A DNA stretch of 64,000 nt, taken from Escherichia phage phiSUSP1. The notes beneath the pieces were generated by a model. That model saw nothing but the letters and a program-made list of their open reading frames with translations. It did no database searches and was not told where the DNA came from. A program made the translations under genes and the position numbers. The stretch is from the sequence record KT454805; one strand, written 5' to 3'. Below, in pieces: positions 4,760 through 63,503 of this stretch (position 1 is the first letter of the stretch; each line of letters starts with the position of its first letter).

Positions 4760-5287
4760 TCAACTTAGTTTTGCAAACTCTCCGTGAAGTTTCATAGAAG
4801 CTTCACAGTAAGCTTTATGGGCTTCTTCAGGGGTGTCATAGTAGCCTAATGACATCTTTTTACCTTTATAGCTTATTTGCGCAACCCACCTACCAGACTT
4901 CTTCTTCAGGCTTACACCCTTATAGCCTGATTTATTGGTGGATAGTTTGCTTTTATTCCAAGCACTTTGGCAGTCGTCTGCTTCTCTTAAGTTTACAATC
5001 CTGTTATCAAGGGAGTCCCCATTACTATGGTCAATAACACCTTTAGGTAACCTACCATACACGTACAGCCATGCGAGTCTGTGCGCTTTATGTGCTTTCT
5101 TGTCAAAATAGATAGTAATCTGCTTATGACCAGTTGAGTCAATCTGGAGGCTTCCCGCTACCTGTCCTGCGTACTGGCTATTAAAAACTTTAACAGCCTT
5201 TGAGTCGCCCTCTCTACGAAGCCAAGTAAAGACCCCTATTTCGGGGTCATAGTGTAGTAGTTCCTTTAAACGTTCTTGTGTAATCAT
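4760..5287 (-). CDS. HNH homing endonuclease with AP2 DNA-binding domain
   Basis: HRLAWLYVYG...DHSNGDSLDNRIVNLR (HNH_3) plus YKGVS...GYYDTPEEAHKAY (AP2); inserted between ligase and polymerase. Confidence 0.8.
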   Translation of the reverse strand: MITQERLKELLHYDPEIGVFTWLRREGDSKAVKVFNSQYAGQVAGSLQIDSTGHKQITIYFDKKAHKAHRLAWLYVYGRLPKGVIDHSNGDSLDNRIVNLREADDCQSAWNKSKLSTNKSGYKGVSLKKKSGRWVAQISYKGKKMSLGYYDTPEEAHKAYCEASMKLHGEFAKLS

Positions 5288-13859: not shown

Positions 13860-14900
13860 ATGGAAAAGTACACGTTAACAAAACTCCCAGATACTGTGAC
13901 ACATGTCTTTATTGACTCTGACAGTATTGCTTACAAGGGAGCCTGTGTCGTTGAGAAAGCAAAGTACAAGTATGTGAATAAACTCACTGCTGAAGAGTCT
14001 GATGCCTTTGAAAGTGCTAAAGATGCTAATCAATGGCTATCTGACCAGAGAGTTCTGACAGAGGAACTTGGTCTTGCATTCGATGAAGATGAATGGGAAA
14101 GACAATCTTGGAAAGAAGCTAAGAGTGAAAAAGAAGCTATTATGGCAACTCAACAAGTTCTTCAGGAATGGTTGAAGGTTGTCGGGAAAGAGCGAACTTG
14201 GATGGGCTACCTTACTGAAAAAGGTGTTCACAAGCATAAAGATATCAAAGGTCTTGAACATCAGTATCAAGGTAATCGTAAAGACGCAGTAACACCTACG
14301 CATTTAGTTGCTTGTCGTGAGTATCTTCTGTCACGACCTGAGTTTAAGCTCTTACTTAATGGGTTTGAAGCTGACTCCATTGTTATTGCAAAAGCTGAGA
14401 AGATGGGTAAGAAGGCTGCTCTTATGAGTATTGATAAAGACCTTCGCCAAGCGGAAGGAACTTACTGTATTGATATGACTTACGAGAAAGCCCCTCTGAT
14501 TTTCATTGCAGATGGTAACGTAGGTGATATTTGGGATTGTCCTATCAAGTCTAAGCCGAAAGCTAAAAAGACTGTTGGTGTAGGCTTCAAATTCCTCTGC
14601 TATCAAGCTGTAGCAGGAGATAACGCAGATAACTACTTTGGCCTTAAGGGTGCAGGGAAAGTTGCTGTAATGAACGCTCTGGAAGGTAAAGAGACCTATA
14701 AAGAGTGTCTTGACGCTATCTATGAACTCTACGCTAAGAAAGAGTCATATACTTATGAATCGTGGGATGGTCAGGTGATTACAAAAACACCTCTTGAATT
14801 AATGCACCAGCACTTCTGGATTGCCTATCAAGAACGTAACCCTAAAGACGATTTCACCTTTGCTAAATATGGTTGGGAGCCTGTTATGAATGAAGATTAA
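13860..14900 (+). CDS. 5'-3' exonuclease / flap endonuclease (T7 gp6-like)
   Basis: VFIDSDSIAYK, SIDKDLRQ and AGDNADNYFGLKGAGK match T7 gp6 VMDGDWLVFQ, SCDKDFK and GDITDGYSGIAGWG. Confidence 0.75.
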   Translation: MEKYTLTKLPDTVTHVFIDSDSIAYKGACVVEKAKYKYVNKLTAEESDAFESAKDANQWLSDQRVLTEELGLAFDEDEWERQSWKEAKSEKEAIMATQQVLQEWLKVVGKERTWMGYLTEKGVHKHKDIKGLEHQYQGNRKDAVTPTHLVACREYLLSRPEFKLLLNGFEADSIVIAKAEKMGKKAALMSIDKDLRQAEGTYCIDMTYEKAPLIFIADGNVGDIWDCPIKSKPKAKKTVGVGFKFLCYQAVAGDNADNYFGLKGAGKVAVMNALEGKETYKECLDAIYELYAKKESYTYESWDGQVITKTPLELMHQHFWIAYQERNPKDDFTFAKYGWEPVMNED

Positions 14901-15390
14901 AGGTTTTGGCAATTGCCCTGAATATGGACATTGGATTTCACTGTGCGGGGAGATTGACCCCGCTAAGTATTTTGGTTTCGTTTACTTAGTGTACTGCAAA
15001 AAGACTGGACAGTATTACATCGGTAAGAAGCAGTTTAACAATGTCACCAAGAAGAAAGTAGCTGGAAAGACCAGACGTAAGATTGTGACAAAAGAGAGTG
15101 ACTGGATGGTTTACCAGACCTCTTCTGAGTACATTAAGAAAGATATTGAAACTTTCGGTGAAAAAGAGTTTGACTTCTATATTGTGCAAACTTATTATAC
15201 GCGAGGTGGGTTGGTCTACGGAGAAGCTAACCTTCAACATAAGTTTGACGTCATGACAAAAAGGATTGACTCCAAGCTTCGACTCTTCTACAATGCAAAC
15301 ATTGCAGCAATCAAGTTTCTTACTAAAGAGACTTATGAAGATGCTGAGAAGAGAATCCATAAAATCATGAAACTTAATGAGAGAGAATAA
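14890..15390 (+). CDS. GIY-YIG family endonuclease-like protein
   Basis: FVYLVYCKKTGQYYIGKK resembles GIY-(10)-YIG motif. Confidence 0.45.
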   Translation: MKIKGFGNCPEYGHWISLCGEIDPAKYFGFVYLVYCKKTGQYYIGKKQFNNVTKKKVAGKTRRKIVTKESDWMVYQTSSEYIKKDIETFGEKEFDFYIVQTYYTRGGLVYGEANLQHKFDVMTKRIDSKLRLFYNANIAAIKFLTKETYEDAEKRIHKIMKLNERE

Positions 15391-15604
15391 GATTATGTTT
15401 AACAAACTGAAGAATGACCACGTAGCTAAAATTGACAGCCACATTGCAGCACTGAAAGATGCAATCATCAAAGCTAAAGAAGCTACGGAGTCCGAAATGG
15501 AGGCTCTTGAGTCCCAGATTCAGCACCTGATTAACAAGCGTGTTGAACTGAAAGGCCGACTGGATTATATTGAGTCTCAGCAGAAACTGTTTCAGGAGGT
15601 TTAA
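15377..15604 (+). CDS. hypothetical small coiled-coil protein
   Basis: 75-aa ORF. Confidence 0.35.
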   Translation: MRENKIMFNKLKNDHVAKIDSHIAALKDAIIKAKEATESEMEALESQIQHLINKRVELKGRLDYIESQQKLFQEV

Positions 15605-16359
15605 TGTTTAATTCCAGAGAATCCGTTTTAACTTGGAACCAGCGTTGTGGTAAAACCCCGTTGACTCCGTATACACCTGAGTACTGGTCTTCGATGCGTA
15701 GTCAAGCACTTTGCATGTTAGAAGAAGCCAAAGAGCTTTTGAAAGCTGTTGATGAAAAAGACCCTATCGAGGCTCTTGATGCTCAGGCAGACTTACAGTA
15801 TGTTCTTGATGGACTGATTTACCTTTCACAGCATGACCATGACGGAGCTATGAAAGCAGTCTGTGAGAATAACAACCTGAAGTATACCGATAACTACGAA
15901 GAAGCTTTGAAGCGTCTTGCAGATATCGAGAAACGTACTGGTGATGAATGTCGTGTACGTGCTTCAATGATTGACGGCAAAGAGTGGTACGCCATTATCC
16001 GTGAGTCTGATAAGAAGGTTATGAAGCAATCTAATCTTCCTAAAGTACAGCTTGCAGAGTTCATCGCGGAACTTGAAAGCAGAGAATTGTTCGTGGTAAC
16101 ATCTGACACATGCGTTATCTGTAAAGGTCTTGTAGGAAGTTTGAAAGACCTTGGATTGAGTGACTTCACAGAAGTTCGACCAATCAGTTCGAAAGCAGAC
16201 AAAGACTTCTGCCGAGAAAACGGATTATGGCTTGCAGATATTGTTTACTATGACGGTGAGAAGTTCCATGTGACCTCATACCCGAAACTGAACTATGATG
16301 CAAATAACCTTAAGAATTGGTTAAAAGGGGTTGGTTATAATGGATTCACAGAACATTAA
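15604..16359 (+). CDS. protein with N-terminal MazG-like nucleotide pyrophosphohydrolase motif
   Basis: LEEAKELLKAVDEKDPIEALDAQADLQYVLDGL resembles MazG/HisE EExxE...D motif pattern; C-terminal half unknown. Confidence 0.35.
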   Translation: MFNSRESVLTWNQRCGKTPLTPYTPEYWSSMRSQALCMLEEAKELLKAVDEKDPIEALDAQADLQYVLDGLIYLSQHDHDGAMKAVCENNNLKYTDNYEEALKRLADIEKRTGDECRVRASMIDGKEWYAIIRESDKKVMKQSNLPKVQLAEFIAELESRELFVVTSDTCVICKGLVGSLKDLGLSDFTEVRPISSKADKDFCRENGLWLADIVYYDGEKFHVTSYPKLNYDANNLKNWLKGVGYNGFTEH

Positions 16360-23313: not shown

Positions 23314-23877
23314 ATGAACTATGAACTAATCTATGACAAGTTAATGAAGAAAGCACACTCTGAGAGGGGTGTGCCTTTAACATTTTACAAATGCCAAGGC
23401 TTAGGTTATGAGAGACACCATATCAAACCACTGTGTCTCGGAGGGGATAGATTTGACGGTAGCAATATAGCCTTATTAACACCAAGGGAACATTATATTG
23501 CACACAAGCTTTTGGTTAAGATGCATCCTGAAAAGTACAAACTCTGGATTGCTTGGCAAAGGCTGTCTACAGATGGACTAAATAGAAAGGTTTCATCAAG
23601 AGACCATGAACACGTCAAACGTTTAAACTCAAAAGCTATGTCTATAATCAATAAAGGTAGATTGTTTACAGATGAGCATAGGTTTAGATTGAGTCAATCC
23701 CAGATTGGTAATACCAAGCCCAAAGGGTGTAAGAGGTCTTTAGAAACAAGGCAACGAATGTCAGAATCTGCAAAGAAACCACAGGCGAAAAAGACGTGCC
23801 CATACTGCGGCATGACAGGTGGTGCAAGCAACATGACACGTTACCATTTTGAGAATTGTAAAAGTAAATCTATGTAA
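23314..23877 (+). CDS. HNH homing endonuclease
   Basis: HHIKPLCLGGD...NIALLTPREHYIAH HNH motif; NUMOD-like repeats; inserted between nrdD and nrdG. Confidence 0.8.
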   Translation: MNYELIYDKLMKKAHSERGVPLTFYKCQGLGYERHHIKPLCLGGDRFDGSNIALLTPREHYIAHKLLVKMHPEKYKLWIAWQRLSTDGLNRKVSSRDHEHVKRLNSKAMSIINKGRLFTDEHRFRLSQSQIGNTKPKGCKRSLETRQRMSESAKKPQAKKTCPYCGMTGGASNMTRYHFENCKSKSM

Positions 23878-25803: not shown

Positions 25804-26319
25804 ATGTACTATTCAAATCTAAAACATGCTGCTGCAATGTCTGTTCTTCGTCTTGATTTCGATGAGCGTCAAGAGTTCATTGAATCCCACAAGTATAATC
25901 CTTCAAATTCTAATCACATGGTACTTTGGAACCGTGGTAAGTTCCGTGACAGTACCCTGTTTCAATACTATCCCCACTATACCATTGATAACCTCTATGA
26001 ATATTGTGTTGTCAAGAACACTATAGCAACTCTTAACAAGCTTTGTAGATACTCTGGGAAGAAAGCTTTCACATTAGGCCACCATAAGCCTGTGACAAAA
26101 GGTGGAGAACATCATTGCTCAAACTGGTTTATTCAGACACAAGAAGATAATCAGAAGCAAGGTGAGAAGCTTCCTGAGACTCCTAAGATGACTTGGGAAG
26201 AACAAAAAGCATATCTCAGAAATAATATGCCACCAATGCTTGACAAGGACTATTCAATTCTGGCAATATCTCTCTTGTTGAAGCTTGAGACAGTTTATGA
26301 GGCAACTTATCATGGCTAG
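25804..26319 (+). CDS. HNH-motif nuclease-like protein
   Basis: LGHHKPVTKGGEHHCSNWFIQTQEDNQKQG resembles HNH His-Me finger. Confidence 0.4.
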   Translation: MYYSNLKHAAAMSVLRLDFDERQEFIESHKYNPSNSNHMVLWNRGKFRDSTLFQYYPHYTIDNLYEYCVVKNTIATLNKLCRYSGKKAFTLGHHKPVTKGGEHHCSNWFIQTQEDNQKQGEKLPETPKMTWEEQKAYLRNNMPPMLDKDYSILAISLLLKLETVYEATYHG

Positions 26320-26600: not shown

Positions 26601-27482
26601 ATGAAAACTATTATTCAAGTCCTGATTAATTCAAACTCTAAAGGCACTCACCAAGAGAACTTCAACATTATCCAGTTCCCTTCAGGAGAAATTGGTGGTA
26701 ACTTCTCAGAAGATTTGGTAGACTTTGTTGAACATGCTGCTGGTAAGATTGATAACGTAATCTTCACGGTACAAGGCTATGATAAAGATACACTCTTTGC
26801 ATTAGCTCTGGCTAAAGAAGCAATTGACCGTATGATTCCTCAGAAAGCAGCTATGAAGACTGTTGTCTTTGGTTTCTTACCAAATGCTAGATATGACCGT
26901 CACATGTTTAAAGGTGATGCAGCAGCACTTAAAGCATTTGCAAATCTTGTAAACGCTATGGAGTTTGATGCAATTTGTGCTCTGGATGCTCATAGTAACG
27001 TGGCAGAGAATCTATTTAAGTGCTTCTACAACCTACCTCAAAAAGAGGCAGCAGTACACTTTGCAAGTGACCCACGAATTGATTACTTAGTGGCTCCAGA
27101 TGCAGGTGCAGCTAAGAAGACTGAAGAAGCTGCTAAGGATGTTGAGAAGCCTTATATCACAATGGCTAAGGTGCGTAACCTGAAAACTGGTGAAATCACT
27201 GGTATGCGAATCCTTGATGACGTAGATTTAACAGGCAAGACTGTCATGATTCTGGATGATATCTGTGACGGTGGTCGTACCTTCATTGAGGCTGCAAAGT
27301 ATCTTCGTGAAGCTGGTGCAGAACGTGTAGAACTGTATGTCACTCATGGGATTTTCTCTAAAGGTGTTGAAAATCTTCTTGACAACGGTATTGACCATAT
27401 CTACACTACAAACTCACTAGGCGATGTAGAAGACCGTGGACTTTCACACTTCTCACAAGTGACTGTAGCAAACATTGAATAG
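26601..27482 (+). CDS. ribose-phosphate pyrophosphokinase family protein (Prs-like; candidate ADP-ribose pyrophosphokinase)
   Basis: VVFGFLPNARYDR resembles Prs AVIPYFGYARQDR; PRPP-binding loop TVMILDDICDGGRT resembles CVLVDDMIDTGGT; THGIFS resembles THPIFS. Confidence 0.85.
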   Translation: MKTIIQVLINSNSKGTHQENFNIIQFPSGEIGGNFSEDLVDFVEHAAGKIDNVIFTVQGYDKDTLFALALAKEAIDRMIPQKAAMKTVVFGFLPNARYDRHMFKGDAAALKAFANLVNAMEFDAICALDAHSNVAENLFKCFYNLPQKEAAVHFASDPRIDYLVAPDAGAAKKTEEAAKDVEKPYITMAKVRNLKTGEITGMRILDDVDLTGKTVMILDDICDGGRTFIEAAKYLREAGAERVELYVTHGIFSKGVENLLDNGIDHIYTTNSLGDVEDRGLSHFSQVTVANIE

Positions 27483-27490
27483 GTAACAAG

Positions 27491-27982
27491 ATGGATAAGG
27501 GTTACTTTGAAAAATACCTAAGATACGAACCAGAGACAGGTTTGTTAATTTGGAAAGTAACCCTTTGTAGCACCGCTATTGCTGGTAATGTGGCTGGCAC
27601 AAGGTCTAAGAAGGGTTATATCCAAGTTCAGATAAACAAGAAGAGGTACTATGCACACAATATCGCATGGATTCTATCTGGAGGTGAGATACCAAGTGGA
27701 TATGAGATAGACCACATAGACCTTGACAAGACAAATAATAAGTTGGAAAACTTAAGACTGAGTACAAAGTCACAAAACCAAAGAAATAGAGGTATACAAA
27801 AGAACAACAAAACTGGCGTGAAGGGTGTAAGTGTATGTACACAGACAGGTCTTTATAAAGCAAGAGTGATGCTTTATCATAAAGAATACTTTTGCGGAAG
27901 ATTTAAAACGCTAGAAGAAGCGAAAGAAGCTGTAATTAAAAAACGATTAGAACTTCATGGTAAGTTTGCAAGACATAACTAA
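27491..27982 (+). CDS. HNH homing endonuclease with AP2 domain
   Basis: YYAHNIAWILSGG...IDHIDLDKTNNKLENLR HNH_3; GVKGVS...YKARV AP2; inserted between Prs-like and NAMPT-like genes. Confidence 0.8.
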   Translation: MDKGYFEKYLRYEPETGLLIWKVTLCSTAIAGNVAGTRSKKGYIQVQINKKRYYAHNIAWILSGGEIPSGYEIDHIDLDKTNNKLENLRLSTKSQNQRNRGIQKNNKTGVKGVSVCTQTGLYKARVMLYHKEYFCGRFKTLEEAKEAVIKKRLELHGKFARHN

Positions 27983-27998
27983 TAGAGAGATATAAAAT

Positions 27999-29816
27999 AT
28001 GAGTAAATCACTTTACGCAGTACCAGCAGGTCTTAATGCAGATGCTTACAAGTCATCACACATCTACCAGTATCCAGATGCTACTCAGTATCTTATGCTG
28101 AATTTAACGCCTCGTGGAGACAAATGGTTTAACTCTCCATTAGAAATTGATGGTGTTGTAGCATTTGGTATTCAGCGTTTTGTAAAAGACTATCTGGTAG
28201 ACCACTGGAATGCAACGTTCTTTGAACGTGATAAGAAAGAAGCCATTGACGAAATCTTGGAAATCATGAATGGTGTACTTGGTGCAGATGCCATTGGTCG
28301 TCAACATTGGGAAGAACTTCATGACTTAGGTTATCTGCCTGTTGAAGTCTACTCTGTAGAGGAAGGTACAATTGTCCCTATGCGTGTCCCGATGATTATA
28401 TTCAAAAACACTGTAGAGGGCTTCCATTGGGTAGCTGGTTATCTCGAAGATGCTTTCTCTGCTGAAATCTGGAAAGCTTGTACAATTGCAACTATTGCAC
28501 TACATTACAAACGTATTTGTAAGAAGTGGTCAGATTTGACCTGTGATAACGACTTCCATCTTCCTTGGCAGTGTCATGACTTTGCAATGCGTGGTATGTC
28601 TGGATTCACAGATGATGCGTTTAACGCAGTAGGTCACCTGACAAGTTTTAAAGGTACTGACAGCTTCCCTGCTGTATACACAGCTAAACGTGCATATGGT
28701 CAGTTTATGACTGTAAGTGATATCGGGAACTCTGTACCAGCAACTGAACACTCTGTGATGTGTGCAAACATCTCATGGAATAGTTGTGCCAAAGAAGTAA
28801 GTGATTGGCATCTGCTACAGTCTGACAACTTGTTAGATGCAATGCGTTGGCGTGGTGAGGTAGAAACTTTCCAACGTCTTCTGACAGAAGTCTACCCAAC
28901 TGGTATTGCAAGTGTTGTATCAGATACTTACAACTTCTGGAGAACTGTTACACAGATTTTACCAGAGCTACGTAATGTGATTCTGAATCGTGATGGTAAG
29001 TTGGTAATCCGTCCAGACTCTGGAGACCCTGTTCACATTGTCACTGGTTACAAAGTCATTGAATGGGAAACTGCTAAGTCAATGTTCTATAAGCACATGA
29101 AAGGTCTTGCACCAGATAACACCCACCTGCATGATGCAATCTTGAATTGTGAAATGGCTGATATTGGCTTTGGATTATCTGCTTGGCTAATCTCTGAAGG
29201 TTATGAGATGGTTGTTGAAAATGAAGATTTTGATTATATTGATACAATCAACCTGATTACTGCTCAGAAAACTGGACAGTTTACTGTGAAGCGTATGTTA
29301 ACAGCAGAAATTGATGGAGCTATCCACACGCTGTATAACATCTTTGGTGGTACTGTTAACTCCAAAGGGTACAAAGTACTGGATGAGCACATTGGACTAA
29401 TCTACGGTGATTCTATCACTTTGGAAAGGGCTAATGAGATTCTATCACGTCTTGCTGATAAAGGTTTTGCAAGTTCTAACGTAGTGTTTGGTGTAGGTTC
29501 ATACACCTATCAGTACCTGACTCGTGATACCTTTGCATTTGCTGTTAAAGCAACTCTTGCACAGATGGACGGTCAAGAAATCATGCTGGCTAAAGACCCT
29601 AAAACAGATAGTGGTCTGAAGAAATCTGCTTTTGGTGGAGTCATCCCTATGTGGGACGGTGATAAGCTGGAAGCTGTAGATGGTTTTGGTTTTGCAGAGT
29701 TTGAAGGTGCAATTGAGAATTGTCAGAGCGCTTTGAAACTGGTATTTAGCAACTCACAACCTTATGGTTATGTTAATCTACGTGATGTACGAAATACTAT
29801 TGACAAGCAACTTTAA
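27999..29816 (+). CDS. nicotinamide phosphoribosyltransferase family protein (NAMPT-like; candidate Namat)
   Basis: NADAYKSSHIYQYP, FKGTDS, SVPATEHS, VVSDTYNFW, IRPDSGDP match human NAMPT ATDSYKVTHYKQYP, FKGTDT, SVPAAEHS, VVSDSYDIY, IRPDSGNP; 605 aa, longer than canonical. Confidence 0.9.
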   Translation: MSKSLYAVPAGLNADAYKSSHIYQYPDATQYLMLNLTPRGDKWFNSPLEIDGVVAFGIQRFVKDYLVDHWNATFFERDKKEAIDEILEIMNGVLGADAIGRQHWEELHDLGYLPVEVYSVEEGTIVPMRVPMIIFKNTVEGFHWVAGYLEDAFSAEIWKACTIATIALHYKRICKKWSDLTCDNDFHLPWQCHDFAMRGMSGFTDDAFNAVGHLTSFKGTDSFPAVYTAKRAYGQFMTVSDIGNSVPATEHSVMCANISWNSCAKEVSDWHLLQSDNLLDAMRWRGEVETFQRLLTEVYPTGIASVVSDTYNFWRTVTQILPELRNVILNRDGKLVIRPDSGDPVHIVTGYKVIEWETAKSMFYKHMKGLAPDNTHLHDAILNCEMADIGFGLSAWLISEGYEMVVENEDFDYIDTINLITAQKTGQFTVKRMLTAEIDGAIHTLYNIFGGTVNSKGYKVLDEHIGLIYGDSITLERANEILSRLADKGFASSNVVFGVGSYTYQYLTRDTFAFAVKATLAQMDGQEIMLAKDPKTDSGLKKSAFGGVIPMWDGDKLEAVDGFGFAEFEGAIENCQSALKLVFSNSQPYGYVNLRDVRNTIDKQL

Positions 29817-29827
29817 AACAGTATGAT

Positions 29828-29852
29828 AAGAGGCTCCTACGGGAGCCTTTTT
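29828..29852 (+). terminator. rho-independent terminator
   Basis: AGAGGCTCC-TACG-GGAGCC followed by TTTTT. Confidence 0.65.
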
Positions 29853-37962: not shown

Positions 37963-38155
37963 TTTCTGCACTAAGTGTTCTATTGAGATGTTTGGTAAAG
38001 ATACAGGAGACTTAAAAGGTCTCTTTACAAAAGCAGAGTTTGAGGCTGGTTCAGCAATGCCAGTAATCTGTGAAGGTTGTGGTGCTTCATGGGTAGACCA
38101 TGAAGGTAACCGAGTTAAACCCTCTGAAGACAACGAACGTTGGGAGCATTATTAA
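37955..38155 (+). CDS. small Zn-ribbon protein
   Basis: CTKCS...CEGCG. Confidence 0.35.
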   Translation: MADFCTKCSIEMFGKDTGDLKGLFTKAEFEAGSAMPVICEGCGASWVDHEGNRVKPSEDNERWEHY

Positions 38156-38156
38156 T

Positions 38157-38951
38157 ATGGGTATCGTAAAGATTATTAAAGGTGATATCTTTAAAGACTT
38201 TGATAATAAGAAGTTTGATATTATTGGTCACGGTTGTAACTGTATGAACTTAATGGGTGCAGGTATTGCAGCAACAATTGCTAAACGCTACCCAAAAGTT
38301 TATGAGACTGATGCTGAAGTTTATACCACAGTAGGTGGTCAAGACCATAAACCTAAGCATATAATGCTTGGCAATATCTCTGTAGCACGTTTTAAGCAGG
38401 GTCGAATTGCTAACCTTTACACTCAGATTATCACTGGTAAAGATGCACGATACAATGCTTTAGAAGCAGCTTTGCAGCGTCTTAACAATTACTGCAAAGT
38501 AAACCAGCTTAAGAAAGTTGGACTTCCTATGATTGGTGCAGGGATTGGTGGTCTTGACAGCATGGCTGTGCTGTCTATCATCAATCAGACCATGAAAGAT
38601 GTTGACGTTTATATGTATGTCTATGAAGATAAGATGTACAGTCAGTTGACTAGTCCGGTTACTGGTTGGGAAAACTTTAGTGAACCTCAATACTTTGATG
38701 GTGTTGCCGTGGTAGGCAAGGATAAAGTTACCCTCAAGGTGAAGCGTAATGGCAAGGTACACACTAGTTACCCTCCGGTTGAGAAGTACAATCGAAGTAA
38801 CGCTCAAGTTACCCACCCGTTACAAGGCCATTGTCACAGAGCCGTAACATTTGGTGATGATGCAAGTGTGTATATCTGTGCTGCTACAGAAGAGTTTGCA
38901 GAGGATTATACCACACATGAAAACGTTAACTATGTTGAAGCACATAACTAA
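38157..38951 (+). CDS. macrodomain protein (ADP-ribose binding/processing) with C-terminal extension
   Basis: IIKGDIF...DIIGHGCNCMNLMGAGIAATIAKRYP and GLPMIGAGIGGL resemble macro-domain Gly-rich ADPR-binding loops; GGGAG RBS before ATG 38157. Confidence 0.6.
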   Translation: MGIVKIIKGDIFKDFDNKKFDIIGHGCNCMNLMGAGIAATIAKRYPKVYETDAEVYTTVGGQDHKPKHIMLGNISVARFKQGRIANLYTQIITGKDARYNALEAALQRLNNYCKVNQLKKVGLPMIGAGIGGLDSMAVLSIINQTMKDVDVYMYVYEDKMYSQLTSPVTGWENFSEPQYFDGVAVVGKDKVTLKVKRNGKVHTSYPPVEKYNRSNAQVTHPLQGHCHRAVTFGDDASVYICAATEEFAEDYTTHENVNYVEAHN

Positions 38952-57848: not shown

Positions 57849-57925
57849 CTCCGTTTAGCTCAGTTTGGTAGAGTGCGCCGTTTGGGGCGGTGAGGTCGAA
57901 GGTTCAATCCCTTCAACGGAGACCA
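57849..57925 (+). tRNA. tRNA-Pro (anticodon TGG)
   Basis: acceptor CTCCGTT/AACGGAG, T-arm GGTTCAATCC, loop TTTGGGG; CCA encoded. Confidence 0.75.
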
Positions 57926-57932
57926 AATTAAT

Positions 57933-58010
57933 GTTCCAGTAGACAAATTGGTAAAGTCACCACACTTTCAATGTGGAGTTTTGAGGGTTCAAGTCCCTTC
58001 TGGAACGCCA
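57933..58010 (+). tRNA. tRNA-Glu (anticodon TTC)
   Basis: acceptor GTTCCAG/CTGGAAC, T-arm GAGGGTTCAAGTCCCTT, loop CTTTCAA. Confidence 0.75.
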
Positions 58011-58017
58011 AATTTGA

Positions 58018-58082
58018 CAGAAGACCAAGTACAGCAAATAACTTTACTTTTCGCGCATAGAAAACTTAAAAGTTTGGTCTGG
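58018..58082 (+). ncRNA. inverted-repeat-bounded inter-tRNA element E1
   Basis: CAGAAGACCAA...TTGGTCTGG, 7-bp closing stem AGACCAA/TTGGTCT. Confidence 0.4.
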
Positions 58083-58093
58083 TCATAAAAGTT

Positions 58094-58170
58094 CGCGGGT
58101 ATAGAGAAAGGGCGTCTCACATGTCTCATTAGCATGGTATCGGCAGGTTCGACTCCTGCACCCGCCTCCA
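58094..58170 (+). tRNA. tRNA-Met/Ile2 (anticodon CAT)
   Basis: T-arm GCAGGTTCGACTCCTGC, loop CTCATTA, 3' ACCCGCC-T-CCA; 5' boundary uncertain. Confidence 0.6.
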
Positions 58171-58176
58171 AATTTG

Positions 58177-58239
58177 CAGAAGACCGTTTACAGCAATCTC
58201 AAAAATTTTTATCGGAAAAAATGAAAAGATACGGTCTGG
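58177..58239 (+). ncRNA. inverted-repeat-bounded inter-tRNA element E2
   Basis: CAGAAGACCGT...ACGGTCTGG, 7-bp closing stem. Confidence 0.4.
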
Positions 58240-58252
58240 CAATACTAAACAT

Positions 58253-58329
58253 GGTGAGGAAGCACATAAGGCATGTGCGGTCGGCTGTTAACCGAATGGT
58301 ATAGGGTTCGAATCCCTAACTCACCGCCA
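58253..58329 (+). tRNA. tRNA-Asn (anticodon GTT)
   Basis: D-arm GCAC-ATAAGGCAT-GTGC, loop CTGTTAA, T-arm TAGGGTTCGAATCCCTA, CCA encoded. Confidence 0.75.
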
Positions 58330-58399
58330 AGATTTGGGAGAGAAGCGTAATGCTCACCGATTTGTAAGGTGTAAGTCCTTAGCCTGAATAGAATAAAAT

Positions 58400-58487
58400 G
58401 CGTCGTTATCCCGTAGATGGAAGCGGTGGTGACTGTAAATCACTTGTCATTATGACTCGGTAGGTTCGACTCCTTCACGGCGCACCA
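58400..58487 (+). tRNA. tRNA-Tyr (anticodon GTA), class II
   Basis: 88 nt with long variable arm; loop CTGTAAA; acceptor GCGTCGT/ACGGCGC. Confidence 0.7.
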
Positions 58488-58493
58488 AATAAA

Positions 58494-58571
58494 GGTTATG
58501 TAGTTTAATCTGGTTAAAATACCTCACTGTCACTGAGGAAGATGAGGGTTCAAATCCCTTCGTAACCGCCA
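58494..58571 (+). tRNA. tRNA-Asp (anticodon GTC)
   Basis: anticodon arm CCTCA-CTGTCAC-TGAGG; T-arm GAGGGTTCAAATCCCTT. Confidence 0.75.
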
Positions 58572-58632
58572 ATTTTGAGAGGGCTTTCTAGCCCCTCCCT
58601 TAAAGAGTTCTTACGAGTATTCTTTAAAGGAG

Positions 58633-58709
58633 CAGAAGACCAAATTCAGCAAGCCAACTTAAAAAATTTCAAGCCAATTTAATTTTGAAAAATTTAAAAC
58701 TTGGTCTGG
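58633..58709 (+). ncRNA. inverted-repeat-bounded inter-tRNA element E3
   Basis: CAGAAGACCAA...TTGGTCTGG closing stem. Confidence 0.4.
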
Positions 58710-58722
58710 CTCAACAAATTTA

Positions 58723-58849
58723 CAGAAGACCGTTTACAGCAAGTATAAAACAATCTATTTCTCTGGTAAAGAAAAGGAGAAGGTTCGATTCCTTCACACG
58801 TTACGGCGTGTTGGTGTAATGGTAGCACTTAAGATAAACAACGGTCTGG
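58723..58849 (+). ncRNA. structured element E4 with tRNA-like T-arm (Y-RNA-like candidate)
   Basis: closing stem AGACCGT/ACGGTCT; internal hairpins GAAGG-TTCGATT-CCTTC (T-arm-like), ACACG-TTACGG-CGTGT, GTGT-AATGGTA-GCAC (D-arm-like); no anticodon arm. Confidence 0.4.
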
Positions 58850-58998
58850 TAATCCTCTTTGCAGTGACTTATGGAGCTAAATGTCGTCCCATGAGTGCCG
58901 ATGAATTTCCTTAGCATGATTCTAGATTAGCTTAATAGGAAATGACTCTACAAACCCTTTAGCAAGGTTTGCGTAGGTTACTGCAAAGATGATTTAAT

Positions 58999-59074
58999 GG
59001 GGGTGTAGCAGAAAGGTGATGCGGCAGACTTTTAATCTGACAGGCGACGGGTTCGAATCCCTCCACTCCCACCA
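58999..59074 (+). tRNA. tRNA-Lys (anticodon TTT)
   Basis: acceptor GGGGGTG/CACTCCC, loop CTTTTAA, T-arm GACGGGTTCGAATCCC. Confidence 0.7.
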
Positions 59075-59078
59075 ATAT

Positions 59079-59155
59079 GGTTCAGTCGCAGATAAGGTAA
59101 TGCAAGGGTTTCATAAGCCCTATGAATGTGGGTTCGAATCCCATCTGAACCTCCA
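59079..59155 (+). tRNA. tRNA-Met/Ile2 (anticodon CAT), second copy
   Basis: acceptor GGTTCAG/CTGAACC, loop TTCATAA, T-arm GTGGGTTCGAATCCCAT. Confidence 0.7.
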
Positions 59156-59156
59156 A

Positions 59157-59232
59157 GCTGGTATAGTTAAGAAGGTTATAACACTCCCCTGATAAGGGAA
59201 CATCGGTGGTTCGATTCCACCTACCAGTACCA
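59157..59232 (+). tRNA. tRNA-Ile (anticodon GAT)
   Basis: loop CTGATAA, T-arm GGTGGTTCGATTCCACC, acceptor GCTGGTA/TACCAGT. Confidence 0.7.
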
Positions 59233-59247
59233 ATTTCAATAAAGTTG

Positions 59248-59276
59248 TTGACATGGAGATGTGACTACTTTATAGT
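59248..59276 (+). promoter_or_regulatory. sigma70-like promoter inside tRNA cluster
   Basis: TTGACA-N17-TATAGT. Confidence 0.6.
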
Positions 59277-59509
59277 AGCCTTAGTTTTCGTTAGCGTAGC
59301 GTCTATTTTGCAAACTTAAAAATAAATGCAAACGATAATGCTTTTCTGGCAGTAGCTTAATAGGCTAAACACCAGTGAGGTCTTCCAATTCCTCATCAAA
59401 GAATTTGGCGTACTCGCCCACGGTATGATTAATAAGGTGGGCAACATTCTAAAGGGTATCCCGTATGGGGCTTGGCTTAAATGCAATGAGTACCCTTTAA
59501 AATGTTAAT

Positions 59510-59586
59510 GCACCCTTAGTTCAATTGGATAGAGCAAGTGCCTTCTAAGCACTGAGTTACAGGTTCGAGTCCTGTAGGGTGTGCCA
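59510..59586 (+). tRNA. tRNA-Arg (anticodon TCT)
   Basis: anticodon arm AGTGC-CTTCTAA-GCACT, T-arm ACAGGTTCGAGTCCTGT. Confidence 0.75.
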
Positions 59587-59593
59587 GTTTAAT

Positions 59594-59715
59594 GGTCAAG
59601 ACAACACTAGTAAGCCATCTGGATACATGTTAACAGATGTACGAAAGTCGGAAAGTTGCTGAAGGTTAGCTACCTTCGAGAGTAAGTAGGTTCGACTCCT
59701 ACCTTGACTGCCAAA
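59594..59715 (+). ncRNA. atypical tRNA-like element (possible pseudogene or insertion-containing tRNA)
   Basis: perfect T-arm GTAGG-TTCGACT-CCTAC and 3' CTTGACT-G-CCA pairing with GGTCAAG ~120 nt upstream; no canonical D-arm. Confidence 0.3.
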
Positions 59716-59849
59716 TAGTTAGCAGATTACTTAGACGACCTTAGCGGGTCTCCGTGTTGATTCAGATGAGTCAACTTCATAAGGAGGTGGTCTGTATCTC
59801 ATGTTTTCCAGAACATGTAAATAATCTGAGAAGAGGCTTGACAGTGTTG

Positions 59850-59878
59850 TGACAATACGGTAAGCTTCGAATTATAGT
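59850..59878 (+). promoter_or_regulatory. sigma70-like promoter
   Basis: TGACAA-N17-TATAGT upstream of tRNA-Trp and HNH gene. Confidence 0.5.
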
Positions 59879-59884
59879 GTTAAT

Positions 59885-59955
59885 AGGGGTGAGCTAAGGC
59901 AGCAATAGAGTCTCCAAAATTCTTGATTAGAGTTCGAATCTCTACACCCCTGCCA
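59885..59955 (+). tRNA. tRNA-Trp (anticodon CCA), short D-arm
   Basis: acceptor AGGGGTG/CACCCCT, loop CTCCAAA, T-arm TAGAGTTCGAATCTCTA; 71 nt. Confidence 0.6.
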
Positions 59956-59969
59956 GAATAGGTACTTGT

Positions 59970-60374
59970 ATGAAACTTTGTAGAAAATGCTCACAAGAAA
60001 AACCTTTAAGTTGTTTTCATAAGCGTGGTAATGGATACCAGTCAGTATGCAAAGATTGCAAATCCAAATACTCTTCTAAGAAGTATCAAGAAGACCCAAC
60101 TTATAAAGCTAAAAGGAAAATTAGGGCGGTAGCTGACAGAAAAAGAAACAGAGAGTTTCTTAACCGATACAAAAGAATCTGCAAATGCAGAGTTTGTGGT
60201 GAATCTGAACCAGTAGCATTAGACTTCCACCATTTAGACCCAAATGAAAAAGACTTTGAACCTAGCAATTTAAAGACTTACTCTAGAGGGACTATTAAGA
60301 GAGAAGTTAGAAAATGTGTTGTACTGTGTTCTAACTGTCATAGGAAAGTTCATGCAGGACTGTTAGAGGTTTAA
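59970..60374 (+). CDS. HNH endonuclease inside tRNA cluster
   Basis: Cys pairs CRKC...CKDC...CRVC and DFHHLDPN...LCSNCHRKVH HNH motif. Confidence 0.7.
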   Translation: MKLCRKCSQEKPLSCFHKRGNGYQSVCKDCKSKYSSKKYQEDPTYKAKRKIRAVADRKRNREFLNRYKRICKCRVCGESEPVALDFHHLDPNEKDFEPSNLKTYSRGTIKREVRKCVVLCSNCHRKVHAGLLEV

Positions 60375-60388
60375 CAGTCTTATTAGGG

Positions 60389-60475
60389 GTAGATAGCGGC
60401 TAATGGAAGCCAAATTGTCTTGAAAACAATTGCCATTGTAGTGATACGGTGAGGGTTCGACTCCTTTATCTACCG
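60389..60475 (+). tRNA. tRNA-Ser (anticodon TGA), class II
   Basis: 87 nt with long variable arm; anticodon arm ATTGT-CTTGAAA-ACAAT; CCA not encoded. Confidence 0.65.
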
Positions 60476-60628
60476 CCTAATGAGATTTAAGCCCACGCTC
60501 TGGTACAGCGTTCGGTTTCCCTCGTGTATTGTCGTACACGCACAACAAAGCACCTAGTAGGTGTCACGGAGAAGAGATAATATCAAGCTCTCCAAAGGTT
60601 CTAGTCACCGGATTAAACAAGACTATGC

Positions 60629-60648
60629 AAAGACCAGTTAGGTCTTTT
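60629..60648 (+). terminator. rho-independent terminator
   Basis: AAGACC-AGTTA-GGTCTT followed by TTT; ends a ~150-nt structured non-tRNA segment. Confidence 0.5.
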
Positions 60649-60718
60649 TAGAGAATTGTTAAGGCATTTGATACCATTGTTGCTTTGGCGTCTTAGCAGT
60701 TCTCTACAAAGATTTAAT

Positions 60719-60796
60719 GGGAGATTGACGGTAATTGGTAAACCTACCATCCTTAGAAGTTGGTGTTTGAGGGTTCGAATCCCTTGTCTCCTACCA
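60719..60796 (+). tRNA. tRNA with anticodon read as TAG, class I
   Basis: acceptor GGGAGAT/GTCTCCT-A-CCA, T-arm GAGGGTTCGAATCCCTT; anticodon arm CCATC-CTTAGAA-GTTGG is a 1-nt variant of the Val tRNA arm. Confidence 0.5.
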
Positions 60797-60803
60797 AATT
60801 AAT

Positions 60804-60879
60804 GCAGGTGTAGCAAAATGGTTATGCGGCTGACTCTTAATCAGTAAGACGATGGGTTCAATTCCCTCCACCTGTACCA
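60804..60879 (+). tRNA. tRNA-Lys (anticodon CTT)
   Basis: paralog of tRNA-Lys(TTT); loop CTCTTAA with compensatory stem change. Confidence 0.6.
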
Positions 60880-60885
60880 AATATT

Positions 60886-60961
60886 GGGGTTGTAGTTTAA
60901 ATGGTTAAAACATAAGTTTTGCAAACTTAAGTACAGGGTTCGATTCCCTGCTTCTCCACCA
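60886..60961 (+). tRNA. tRNA-Cys-like (anticodon GCA), imperfect acceptor stem
   Basis: anticodon arm AAGTT-TTGCAAA-AACTT, T-arm CAGGGTTCGATTCCCTG; two U-U mismatches in acceptor; possible pseudogene. Confidence 0.4.
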
Positions 60962-60967
60962 ATTAGT

Positions 60968-61042
60968 GCATCCATAGTTTAAACGGGAAAATTACAGTCT
61001 TCCAAACTGAGGTTGAGGGTTCGATTCCCTCTGGATGCTCCA
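60968..61042 (+). tRNA. tRNA-Gly (anticodon TCC)
   Basis: acceptor GCATCCA/TGGATGC perfect; loop CTTCCAA. Confidence 0.75.
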
Positions 61043-61049
61043 AATTAAT

Positions 61050-61125
61050 GCTCCTATCGTATAATTGGCTATTACGGTTGCCTTGTAAGCAACTTATCAG
61101 GGTTCGAATCCTTGTGGGAGCACCA
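61050..61125 (+). tRNA. tRNA-Thr (anticodon TGT)
   Basis: anticodon arm GTTGC-CTTGTAA-GCAAC; acceptor GCTCCTA/TGGGAGC. Confidence 0.75.
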
Positions 61126-61221
61126 ATTCAGAGGTCGAGTGAAAGACCGCTTGAGTCAACTGAAGACCGTAACAAATTCCACGGAGTTGAGTTAGCGGCA
61201 CAACTTCAGACCTCTTTTCAT

Positions 61222-61296
61222 ACTCGCTTAGTTTATACGGTAAAGCCCCATCCTTACAAGTTGGTGAAGAAGGTTCAAGTCCTTCAGCGAGTACCA
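61222..61296 (+). tRNA. tRNA-Val (anticodon TAC)
   Basis: loop CTTACAA as in E. coli tRNA-Val; acceptor ACTCGCT/AGCGAGT; T-arm GAAGGTTCAAGTCCTTC. Confidence 0.7.
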
Positions 61297-61298
61297 AT

Positions 61299-61376
61299 GT
61301 TCCAGTATCCCAATTGGCAGAGGATGCAAGCTCAAACCTTGTATTAGTGACGGTTCGAATCCGTCTTGGAACACCA
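61299..61376 (+). tRNA. tRNA with anticodon read as CAA, class I
   Basis: acceptor GTTCCAG/TTGGAAC-A-CCA; anticodon arm GCAAG-CTCAAAC-CTTGT; T-arm GACGGTTCGAATCCGTC. Confidence 0.5.
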
Positions 61377-61392
61377 ATTTTAGGAGATTCCT

Positions 61393-61605
61393 ATGAAGCC
61401 TTATGGTAGACACGGTAAAGTTGAAATTGCAAGTTGTGGTTGCTGTGCTTCTCACGATGGTGAAGAAGATTACTACAAGTGGCGTACAGACCATCGTAGA
61501 CGCTTTCTCAGAAGAGATAAGAAGAGAGCTAGACAGGAATCTCAAAAGAACATTGCAGAATTAGTTCAAATGGATAGAGCAGCAGCCTACGAAGTTGCTT
61601 GTTAG
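61393..61605 (+). CDS. small basic Cys-containing protein; 3' end overlaps tRNA-Arg
   Basis: AGGAG RBS 7 nt before ATG; 70 aa; last ~50 nt overlap tRNA 61555-61631. Confidence 0.25.
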   Translation: MKPYGRHGKVEIASCGCCASHDGEEDYYKWRTDHRRRFLRRDKKRARQESQKNIAELVQMDRAAAYEVAC

Positions 61606-61631
61606 GGGTTCGAATCCCTTATTCTGCACCA
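61555..61631 (+). tRNA. tRNA-Arg (anticodon ACG)
   Basis: acceptor GCAGAAT/ATTCTGC perfect; anticodon arm GCAGC-CTACGAA-GTTGC. Confidence 0.7.
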
Positions 61632-61650
61632 ATTTAAAGAGGCTATTTAA

Positions 61651-62208
61651 ATGAGATATTTGAAGTATGCTTCATGGATTTTCCTAGCTTTGCTAGAGCC
61701 ATTTGCAGCAATCTTAGCAGTAATCTTAGCACCCTTTGTGGTTCCATTCTACAGTGAGAGGAAAGGTCACTTACCTTTTGGATTCAGATGGATGGAAACT
61801 TATGATAACCCGATTGACGGTGACAAAGGTCACGTTGAGCGATGGGCTAAGATTCGAAAGATTGGTAAGCTCGGTGTTTATATGCAGAGAGTTGGATGGC
61901 TCTGGAGAAACAAAGCTTATAACTTCTCTTACCATGTATTAGGAAGAGATGTAAAAGATGTTACTAAGTGGAAAGGTAATATCAACGTAAGTTCTAACCC
62001 TGAAGATAAACAGACAGGTTATCTCCTGATGTGGAACAGTAATGCTTGGGGTTTATTCGCTTTTATCCCGTCAATTAAAATCTTTGGTAAACAATTTTAC
62101 TGGAGAATTTATGTTGGTTGGAAACTTAAAAGTGTTGTCCCAGAAGAAAGAGCATTTTCAAGGGAAAGAATTATGTTGGCATTCTTTATTCATCCACTAA
62201 GAAAGTAA
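61651..62208 (+). CDS. hypothetical protein with N-terminal hydrophobic helix
   Basis: AAGAGG RBS; WIFLALLEPFAAILAVILAPFVV; 185 aa inside tRNA cluster. Confidence 0.4.
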   Translation: MRYLKYASWIFLALLEPFAAILAVILAPFVVPFYSERKGHLPFGFRWMETYDNPIDGDKGHVERWAKIRKIGKLGVYMQRVGWLWRNKAYNFSYHVLGRDVKDVTKWKGNINVSSNPEDKQTGYLLMWNSNAWGLFAFIPSIKIFGKQFYWRIYVGWKLKSVVPEERAFSRERIMLAFFIHPLRK

Positions 62209-62216
62209 AGATTTAA

Positions 62217-62292
62217 AGGGGATTAGTTTACAAGGTTAAAACCTCGGTCTTTGAAATCGAAGAAGTTGGTTCAATTCCAACATCCCCCGCCA
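62217..62292 (+). tRNA. tRNA-Gln (anticodon TTG)
   Basis: anticodon arm TCGGT-CTTTGAA-ATCGA; T-arm GTTGGTTCAATTCCAAC; A1-C72 mismatch. Confidence 0.65.
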
Positions 62293-62294
62293 AT

Positions 62295-62373
62295 GCTCCA
62301 TTACTCCAATTGGCAGAGAGGCCAGACTTAAAATCTGTGTTATGTATCGGTTCGAATCCGATATGGAGTACCA
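62295..62373 (+). tRNA. tRNA with anticodon read as TAA
   Basis: acceptor GCTCCAT/ATGGAGT-A-CCA; loop CTTAAAA in a Lys-tRNA-like arm; 7-nt variable loop. Confidence 0.5.
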
Positions 62374-62380
62374 AATTAAT

Positions 62381-62456
62381 AGCAGTGTAGCATAACTGGC
62401 AATGCTCCAGCCTCTGAAGCTGAAAGATTAAGGTTCAAATCCTTACGCTGCTGCCA
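62381..62456 (+). tRNA. tRNA-Gln (anticodon CTG)
   Basis: anticodon arm CAGC-CTCTGAA-GCTG; T-arm TAAGGTTCAAATCCTTA. Confidence 0.65.
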
Positions 62457-62487
62457 CTTCTAAGGGTTCTTACGAGAGTCCTTACAT

Positions 62488-62564
62488 GTGTCCTTATCAT
62501 AAATGGATAATGACCCATGCTGTGAACATGGTCTATACGGGTTCGATTCCCGTAGGTCACCCCA
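62488..62564 (+). tRNA. tRNA-His (anticodon GTG)
   Basis: D-arm TCAT-AAATGGATA-ATGA, anticodon arm CCATG-CTGTGAA-CATGG, discriminator C73. Confidence 0.7.
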
Positions 62565-62572
62565 AATTTAAT

Positions 62573-62648
62573 GGGTTAAGTAGCTTATATGGTTAAAGCG
62601 CGTGTCTGAAAAACATGAGAAGAGGGTTCAAATCCCACTAACCCGCCA
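62573..62648 (+). tRNA. tRNA-Phe (anticodon GAA)
   Basis: anticodon arm CGTGT-CTGAAAA-ACATG; acceptor GGGTTAA/CTAACCC. Confidence 0.6.
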
Positions 62649-62665
62649 ATTTCAAAAGGTGCTTA

Positions 62666-63400: not shown

Positions 63401-63402
63401 TT

Positions 63403-63495: not shown

Positions 63496-63503
63496 ATTTA
63501 ATG

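Follow-up and report, generated by a model that had tools for sequence, protein, structure and literature searches.

A very probable NARP1 anti-defence operon of Escherichia phage phiSUSP1 with a predicted HNH homing endonuclease gene in its spacer

NARP1 (NAD+ reconstitution pathway 1) was discovered as genes 79-80 of Bas63, a Felixounavirus, and deletion of these genes sensitised the phage to SIR2-HerA (Osterman et al., bioRxiv 10.1101/2024.02.11.579819). In vivo, ADPR-PP was detected only when wild-type Bas63 met the defence system, and the phage remained protected in hosts lacking pncC and nadR (bioRxiv 10.1101/2024.02.11.579819). Because Bas63 Adps did not purify, the in vitro enzymology is confined to the SpβL1 homologs. 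Tested in a Prs-type reaction, SpβL1 Adps formed no product, and Namat offered PRPP and ADPR-PP together formed NAD+ as the sole product. Namat keeps a side activity in vitro that turns PRPP into NMN, therefore some NMN production is possible. The survey in the same paper counted a Namat homolog as neighbouring when it lay no more than 10 genes from adps, and its Table S2 labels the Namats of Moogle, FelixO1 and Bas63 as "Adps-associated" (bioRxiv 10.1101/2024.02.11.579819).

We analysed a stretch of 64,000 nucleotides (hereafter the window) of the ~90.7 kb genome of Escherichia phage phiSUSP1 (KT454805). The original prediction had named three open reading frames, and all of them were found intact on the plus strand, the strand of all features below unless noted: a Prs-like gene at 26601-27482, an HNH gene at 27491-27982 and a NAMPT-like gene at 27999-29816. 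The outer two are separated by 516 nt with the single HNH gene between them, well within the 10-gene vicinity used in the NARP1 survey. They are flanked by NrdG upstream and rIIA downstream, the same context as the Bas63 pair; neighbours of this kind (the large replication, Nrd and rIIA genes) were named by synteny with the Bas63 annotation. Twelve nucleotides past the namat stop lies a terminator-like hairpin (29828..29851), found by a consensus scan, whose 10-bp stem has 5 GC pairs and precedes a T-run. It probably marks the 3' end of the transcription unit, although terminator-like sites in the region do not exceed the number expected from shuffled sequence.

We read the region, with high confidence, as an anti-defence operon of the NARP1 type in an Ounavirinae myovirus, with an HNH selfish element in its spacer. 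By analogy with the characterised homologs, the pair would have the same activities as these. Host NADase defence (SIR2-HerA/Nezha, Thoeris I, DSR1/2, SEFIR and similar systems) would split NAD+ into ADP-ribose and nicotinamide; Adps would then transfer a pyrophosphate from ATP to the terminal ribose of ADPR, yielding ADPR-PP, and Namat would swap this pyrophosphate for nicotinamide. NAD+ would form directly in this way, and neither NMN as an intermediate nor an NMN adenylyltransferase would be needed. This is the reading that the original prediction had preferred, and it is supported by orthology and synteny with Bas63, by identity to an entry in Table S1 of the discovery paper and by the clamp signature described below. 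The reading is right but not new, as the pathway has been published, was found in the same phage lineage, and the exact Adps stands in the table of the discovery paper.

The adps gene (26601..27482) encodes a Prs-family protein of 293 aa, a putative ADP-ribose pyrophosphate synthetase. The ATG at 26601 is supported as its start over an upstream TTG at 26583, because the resulting product has the length of the Bas63, FelixO1, Moogle and HP1 orthologs. Pfam recognised Pribosyltran and Pribosyl_synth in this product, and PHROGs assigned it to PHROG 619 (ribose-phosphate pyrophosphokinase, E 4e-98). The motifs quoted for both proteins in the original prediction could all be located in the translations; in the Prs-like protein these are ARYDR (aa 96-100), the PRPP loop MILDDICDGGRT (aa 216-227) and THGIFS (aa 248-253). 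The protein is 81% identical to Bas63 gp79, the founding Adps, over 293/293 residues without gaps. Supplementary Table 1 of the NARP1 paper lists the very same sequence (100% identity) as KT454805_00075 from phiSUSP1, with "Yes" entered for a Namat within 10 genes (bioRxiv 10.1101/2024.02.11.579819). Cellular Prs structures matched only at E 1e-16 or weaker, and pairwise similarity places the protein with the phage Adps clade rather than with cellular Prs. Its flexible loop (K190-x-R192...T196-G197) and PRPP loop are invariant in 7 Adps from 5 phage lineages. The catalytic lysine mutated in the literature is K162 of SpβL1 Adps, equivalent to K197 of B. subtilis Prs; judging from the conserved loop, with the SpβL1 Adps sequence outside the alignment, K190 would be the corresponding residue.

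The namat gene (27999..29816) encodes a NAMPT-family protein of 605 aa, a putative nicotinamide ADP-ribose transferase, which is 100% identical to the phiSUSP1 protein at NCBI and shares 75% identity with Bas63 gp80 along its whole length. It carries the motifs FKGTDS (aa 217-222), SVPATEHS (245-252), VVSDTY (306-311) and IRPDSG (337-342); Pfam recognised NAPRTase and NAMPT_N, and PHROGs returned nicotinamide phosphoribosyltransferase (E 5e-199). The profile and structure comparison suggested with the original prediction placed the protein nearest to the SpβL1 Namat crystals 9W5W/9W5X and not to human NAMPT. By sequence these crystals were the top solved-structure match (E 6e-125 versus 3e-41 for human NAMPT), and an AF2 model (pLDDT 93.3) likewise had Namat crystals as its nearest structures (Foldseek E 3e-53, TM 0.94-0.95). 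The catalytic core is kept (F195, R198, D221, H251, R338, D340): D215, F189, the catalytic His and R306 of SpβL1 Namat, the last of these mutated in published work, are conserved as D221, F195, H251 and R338.

Two further elements, both known from the published adenine clamp of Namat, could be assigned. The selectivity-clamp loop (SCL; TPRGDKW, aa 37-43; 28107..28127) follows, as read from sequence only, the published rule of R, K or Y at the third position, with adenine stacking left to the fourth residue when the third is K or Y: its G40-D41-K42-W43 has the same K-W pattern as S-D-K-W in Bas63. The selectivity-clamp helix (SCH; GSYTYQYLTRD, aa 500-510; 29496..29528) fits the clamp motif as defined in PMC12774641, with Leu at Φ3, where Asn or Val is typical. 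We found the SCH motif in 7/7 of the Adps-paired homologs aligned, and its aromatics were missing from the controls, namely the unpaired KP27 Nampt (GGGLLQEVTRD), H. ducreyi NadV (9ke8, GAQTYQRNTRD) and Xanthomonas Nampt (GGALLQKVDRD). The protein thus carries, at the level of its primary structure, the published Namat adenine-clamp (ADPR-PP selectivity) signature that bona fide Nampts lack.

At 605 aa, Namat of the window exceeds the solved NAMPT and Namat chains (477-496 aa) by about the 100 aa that had been claimed. The use of this length as an argument for the ADPR route does not hold, however: the SpβL1 Namat, proven both by biochemistry and by crystallography, has 491 aa and the Adps-paired Bacillus Kida homolog 495 aa, so that the extra ~100 aa are not diagnostic. 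The extra length resides in two lineage-variable insertions of ~115 aa in total, whose lengths form a continuum across Namat-type homologs. Insertion 1 (aa 258-286; 28770..28856) is helical, directly follows the catalytic His251 and has no Pfam family match; it measures 20-37 aa in Ounavirinae-type homologs, whereas SpβL1 Namat and the 495-aa forms lack it and have 7 aa at this place. Insertion 2 (aa 352-439, 88 aa; 29052..29315), between the RPDSGD and YGDS active-site elements, is predicted to be a folded α/β subdomain, and we found no known structural relative for it; the 495-aa forms have a 17-aa linker at the same place. A regulatory or partner-docking role for this subdomain is a possibility.

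Classical nicotinamide salvage offers another account of the pair: the phage Prs would make PRPP, the phage Nampt (NadV) would make NMN, and host NadR or PncC would complete NAD+. Pfam, PHROGs and every deposited annotation describe a ribose-phosphate pyrophosphokinase and a nicotinamide phosphoribosyltransferase, the FelixO1 record reads "part of pyridine nucleotide salvage pathway", and the in vitro formation of NMN from PRPP by Namat points the same way. We nevertheless regard salvage as very improbable, given that the closely related Bas63 pair still protects its phage in a ΔpncC ΔnadR host and that ADPR-PP was detected in vivo, that the SpβL1 enzymes showed neither Prs-type activity nor any product other than NAD+ when Namat had both substrates, and that Namat of the window has the adenine clamp missing from true Nampts.

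The middle gene (27491..27982) encodes a predicted free-standing homing endonuclease inserted in the adps-namat spacer. It had been labelled HNH-AP2; the HNH part stands (Pfam HNH_3 E 9e-19; PHROG 99, HNH endonuclease, E 7e-68), whereas the AP2 part is only suggestive, the C-terminal 63 aa covering the full AP2 profile at 18.5 bits against a cut-off of 33.3. A paralog elsewhere in the window (4760-5287, minus strand) shows a clear HNH_3 and AP2 pair. The insert is present at the adps-namat junction of the window, Moogle, Mijalis, S.Kent 1-2-1, FelixO1 and LF110P4, and absent in HP1, Michonne, Mordin, the Sf13-Sf19 phages and Bas63, i.e., at this fixed site the insert is polymorphic among genomes that are otherwise collinear. 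Compared with insert-free relatives, the GC-rich hairpin of the 45-nt spacer is replaced and the namat ribosome-binding region is kept. The gene would have invaded the short spacer as a selfish element and would take no part in NAD+ chemistry. Loss of the spacer hairpin might also be taken to mean that the insertion uncoupled or silenced the operon, leaving the pair as a decaying remnant. The flanking ORFs are both intact and full length, however, the ribosome-binding region is retained, and the arrangement, followed through HNH gene copies at least 90% identical, is conserved in ~59 records of sequenced Ounavirinae including FelixO1, a pattern that speaks for both genes still being under selection; decay is very improbable.

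The original prediction had also reported that no NMNAT or Nudix gene is recognisable in the window, and this holds for the 66 ORFs we scanned with Pfam (those above about 75-110 aa, other than the large replication, Nrd and rIIA genes), none of which matched CTP_transf_like, NadR or NUDIX. A NARP2-type pathway (Nampt plus Nmnat) with its Nmnat encoded in the about 27 kb of genome beyond the window is the least credible account and can practically be set aside, as NARP2 Nampts form a separate clade without an Adps partner and with Nmnat co-occurring in 94%, the authors' survey found no phage with both NARP1 and NARP2, and the locus, with its adjoining Adps, its Namat-type clamp and no Nmnat found in the window, does not belong to that class.

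A single Macro-domain gene was found in the window, at 38157-38951, unlinked and ~8.3 kb downstream of the pair. It is syntenic with Bas63 gene 95, and its product shares 31% identity (E 5e-18) with Cilsick gp173, itself 98.7% identical to Gary Adpp. NARP1-AP requires that an ADPR-1''-phosphate phosphatase with a Macro domain lie no more than two genes from NARP1 (bioRxiv 10.64898/2026.01.28.702374). The locus falls outside this class, as its in-operon gene is an HNH endonuclease, and the small ORFs flanking the pair gave no Macro match. It is tempting to speculate that Ounavirinae run a "split" NARP1-AP, in which the Macro protein would act as an Adpp-like ADPR-1''-phosphate phosphatase that feeds ADPR to Adps and Namat and also defeats RES-type (aRES) NAD+ phosphorylase defence, but we consider this rather doubtful. 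If true, the published survey would have overlooked it because only Macro genes within two genes of NARP1 were counted, and the unlinked gene might extend the pathway against aRES. Separately, the ADP-ribose-sensing repressor NrtR adjoins pairs of the Adps-Namat type on chromosomes, a neighbourhood that could account for a puzzle noted in 2008.

For the NARP1 operon itself, the practical value of the analysis lies in annotation. Across ~240 Ounavirinae genomes in GenBank the two genes are still named ribose-phosphate pyrophosphokinase and nicotinamide/nicotinate phosphoribosyltransferase, names that Adps and Namat should replace. Beyond this, a small value remains in three leads, i.e., the insertion subdomain present in many phage Namats, the unlinked Macro gene, and NrtR beside the chromosomal pairs.

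The locus can be compared with several known systems. NARP2, exemplified by KVP40 NadV-NatV, and cellular Nampts (human NAMPT, H. ducreyi NadV, Xanthomonas Nampt) share the NAMPT fold and the catalytic core for nicotinamide and ribose-phosphate, but prefer PRPP, need an Nmnat and have neither an Adps partner nor the aromatic clamp residues. NARP1-AP of Vibrio phage Gary (Adps, the Macro-domain phosphatase Adpp, Namat; bioRxiv 10.64898/2026.01.28.702374) also has a third gene between adps and namat, which encodes a Macro phosphatase in Gary and a homing endonuclease in the window. The SpβL1 Adps and Namat (9W5W/9W5X; NAR 2026, PMC12774641) agree with the pair in fold, catalytic residues, SCH motif and operon logic, whereas SpβL1 Namat lacks both insertions, has Arg40 instead of K-W in its clamp loop and is only ~37% identical to Namat of the window. 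In FelixO1 (NC_005282; ORF127/ORF128/nadV) the HNH-split order of Prs-like, HNH and NadV genes is identical and had already been annotated, its HNH protein is 95% identical, and its Adps and Namat are listed in the tables of the NARP1 paper; the sequences diverge by ~20-25% and the annotation is that of classical salvage, a label older than NARP1. Bas63 (JohannRWettstein) genes 79-80, likewise from Ounavirinae and lying between NrdG and rIIA, encode an Adps of the same 293 aa and a Namat that shares both insertions and the K-W clamp loop. In contrast to the window, Bas63 has a spacer of 45 nt with a hairpin in place of the HNH gene, and its Namat is 12 aa shorter, the difference lying within insertion 1.

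The three genes predicted at this locus are all present, intact and on the same strand. They comprise a Prs-like gene, adps (26601-27482, +; 293 aa counted from the ATG; Pfam Pribosyltran and Pribosyl_synth), an HNH gene (27491-27982, +; 163 aa; HNH_3) and a NAMPT-like gene, namat (27999-29816, +; 605 aa; NAPRTase and NAMPT_N), separated by gaps of 8 nt and then 16 nt. PHROGs labels their products ribose-phosphate pyrophosphokinase, HNH endonuclease and nicotinamide phosphoribosyltransferase (E 4e-98, 7e-68 and 5e-199 in turn), and each Prs or NAMPT motif quoted in the original prediction could be located at a defined position in the proteins. By DNA similarity, the phage is an Ounavirinae myovirus with Salmonella phage S.Kent 1-2-1 (94%) and Citrobacter phage Moogle (92.6%) as its closest records, and a DNA similarity search found the Prs-like and NAMPT-like gene pair in 241 phage records. 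The Namat sequence is 100% identical to the phiSUSP1 protein at NCBI.

The NAD+ reconstitution pathway NARP1 was first found in BASEL phage Bas63 (JohannRWettstein) as genes 79-80; without them Bas63 becomes sensitive to SIR2-HerA, ADPR-pyrophosphate (ADPR-PP) was seen only in defence-carrying cells infected by wild-type Bas63, and protection was independent of host pncC or nadR (10.1101/2024.02.11.579819). Bas63 (MZ501086) is a Felixounavirus, within the same subfamily as phiSUSP1. Its gp79 (293 aa) is 81% identical to the window Adps without gaps, gp80 (593 aa) is 75% identical to Namat over the full length, and both genomes share NrdG upstream of the pair and, downstream, small conserved ORFs followed by rIIA. 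The discovery paper lists the window Adps: row KT454805_00075 of its Supplementary Table 1, assigned to "Escherichia phage phiSUSP1", is identical at 293/293 residues and flagged "Namat within 10 genes: Yes", and Table S2 tags the Namats of Moogle, FelixO1 and Bas63 as "Adps-associated" (10.1101/2024.02.11.579819). The pair is therefore already catalogued as NARP1, and the feature is known to this exact sequence. In the same Supplementary Table 1, row FJ373894_00125 of Shigella phage Ag3 opens with Adps sequence and, past the PRPP loop, runs straight on into Namat sequence (...ATEHAVMC...RPDSGDP...); it represents a natural fusion of the two proteins, or else a deletion or an assembly artefact.

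The original prediction preferred an ADPR-based route over classical salvage from PRPP, a preference supported by orthology and synteny with Bas63, by signature residues and by fold similarity; the pair is very probably NARP1. Structural work on SpβL1 Namat published in 2026 defined a "selectivity clamp", a helix motif and a loop gripping the adenine of ADPR-PP (PMC12774641; PDB 9W5W/9W5X). In the window Namat the helix reads GSYTYQYLTRD (aa 500-510) and the loop has the Bas63-type pattern G-D-K-W (aa 40-43), including K42-W43. Alignment revealed the clamp motif in 7/7 Adps-paired homologs from five phage lineages, as well as in all 47 close database homologs. It was not found in the Nampt of Klebsiella phage KP27 (GGGLLQEVTRD), which no Adps adjoins, in crystallised H. 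ducreyi NadV (GAQTYQRNTRD) or in Xanthomonas Nampt (GGALLQKVDRD). The Namat arginine R306, essential by mutagenesis, corresponds to R338 in the window protein, which also keeps counterparts of D215, F189 and the catalytic His, and the flexible-loop lysine of Adps, likewise essential in the literature, is K190. By sequence, the top solved structure for Namat is SpβL1 Namat (E 6e-125; human NAMPT 3e-41). The proposed structure comparison, run for Namat, agreed: a confident AlphaFold2 model (pLDDT 93.3, pTM 0.91) retrieved the Namat crystals best in Foldseek (E 3e-53, TM 0.94-0.95), ahead of H. ducreyi NadV and human NAMPT.

Among 66 window ORFs scanned with Pfam, none matched an NMNAT-type or Nudix domain, as had been claimed; in agreement with this, the NARP1 authors found no phage with both NARP1 and the Nampt-Nmnat route NARP2. 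The extra length of Namat, previously taken as a hint of the ADPR route, does not hold as an argument, because proven or Adps-paired Bacillus phage Namats are 491-495 aa long. Two insertions that SpβL1 Namat lacks account for the extra residues: aa 258-286 directly follow the catalytic His, and aa 352-439 separate the active-site elements RPDSGD and YGDS. The length at the latter site ranges over 47 homologs from a 17-aa baseline up to 44-95 aa, marking it as an insertion hotspot.

The predicted homing endonuclease between the two genes was confirmed and is mobile, being polymorphic among relatives. As regards its "HNH-AP2" label, Pfam supports the HNH_3 part, whereas the AP2 match covers the entire profile at a sub-threshold 18.5 bits (cut-off 33.3); AP2 gains indirect support from a 33%-identical paralog at 4760-5287 (-) with a clear HNH_3+AP2 pair. 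Without the HNH gene the adps-namat spacer is 45 nt, as in HP1 and Bas63. A GC-rich hairpin, GGGGCT-GAGA-AGCCCC, is conserved in these HNH-less spacers (HP1 locus L007, 3883-3926; Bas63 locus L006, 23629-23673). In the window and Moogle the HNH gene stands where the hairpin would be and the namat ribosome-binding region is kept; in LF110P4, 20 nt separate the end of the HNH gene from namat. Copies at >=90% protein identity occur in about 59 phage records, and the FelixO1 reference annotation has the identical Prs/HNH/nadV order. The gene is a free-standing homing endonuclease of the usual polymorphic kind, annotated at this site ever since the FelixO1 genome publication. Besides this gene, homing-endonuclease-like genes lie at 4760-5287 (-), 14890-15390 (+), 23314-23877 (+) and 25804-26319 (+): the HNH_3+AP2 paralog, located beside DNA polymerase, a SegE-type GIY-YIG gene, a gene combining NUMOD3 with a colicin-DNase-like part directly after nrdD and, two genes upstream of adps, a conserved ORF of 171 aa with weak PHROG similarity to HNH endonuclease.

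What novelty remains lies solely in side leads, not in the NARP1 pair. A Macro-domain ORF at 38100-38951 (+; likely start 38157; Pfam E 1.2e-7; PHROG 335 "phosphatase", E 6e-107) has yeast Poa1p, an ADP-ribose-1''-phosphate phosphatase, and human OARD1 as its best solved structures; its C-terminal extra region of ~100 aa has no Pfam match. The protein is 64% identical to the product of Bas63 gene 95. Against gp173 of Vibrio phage Cilsick its identity is 31% (E 5e-18), and the H-x-CNC, MG-GIA and GLP-IG-G motifs occur in both proteins. The gp173 gene sits between Adps and Namat, and its product shares 98.7% identity with the Adpp of Vibrio phage Gary, an ADPR-1''-phosphate phosphatase validated biochemically (10.64898/2026.01.28.702374). 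The Adpp survey counted Macro genes solely within two genes of NARP1 (10.64898/2026.01.28.702374), so an unlinked copy would escape it. The window protein could be an unlinked Adpp extending NARP1 against the NAD+ phosphorylase defence aRES; this is a lead rather than a finding, because the family is very large (2,787 phage records, T-even Tk.4 among them) and not NARP1-specific. A MazG-like nucleotide pyrophosphohydrolase gene at 15604-16359 (+; Pfam PRA-PH, E 3e-7; PHROG 2144, E 3e-94) belongs to nucleotide metabolism, with possible anti-defence relevance. A tRNA cluster at 57849-63578 (+) has 25 genes that together serve most amino acids, with small ORFs scattered among them, an arrangement typical of FelixO1-like phages.

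A Klebsiella michiganensis contig (GCA_023685665.1; L015 3127-5491) carries a chromosomal pair of Prs-like (289 aa) and Namat-type (496 aa) genes, the latter with the clamp motif GSFTYQYNTRD, beside a divergent NrtR-type regulator (NUDIX + WHD_NrtR; L015 2211-2930). NrtR represses γ-proteobacterial "prs-nadV" operons and is released by ADP-ribose, and their dedicated prs paralog was termed unexplained (Rodionov et al., 2008; PMC2330246). If read as Adps-Namat, the K. michiganensis pair would have ADPR for its inducer and its substrate alike, which would resolve the puzzle of the prs paralog. Our literature search found no paper naming NrtR together with Namat.

In the literature, the SpβL1 enzymes convert ADPR and ATP to ADPR-PP, and SpβL1 Namat, with solved crystal structures, joins ADPR-PP to nicotinamide to give NAD+, favouring ADPR-PP over PRPP (PMC12774641). 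Bas63 Adps failed to purify, and the in vitro enzymology comes from the SpβL1 homologs, not from Ounavirinae. By analogy, the window Adps and Namat would catalyse these same reactions, and we infer that they share the Bas63 and SpβL1 activities; Bas63 provides the close ortholog of the pair, whereas the SpβL1 enzymes are more distant.
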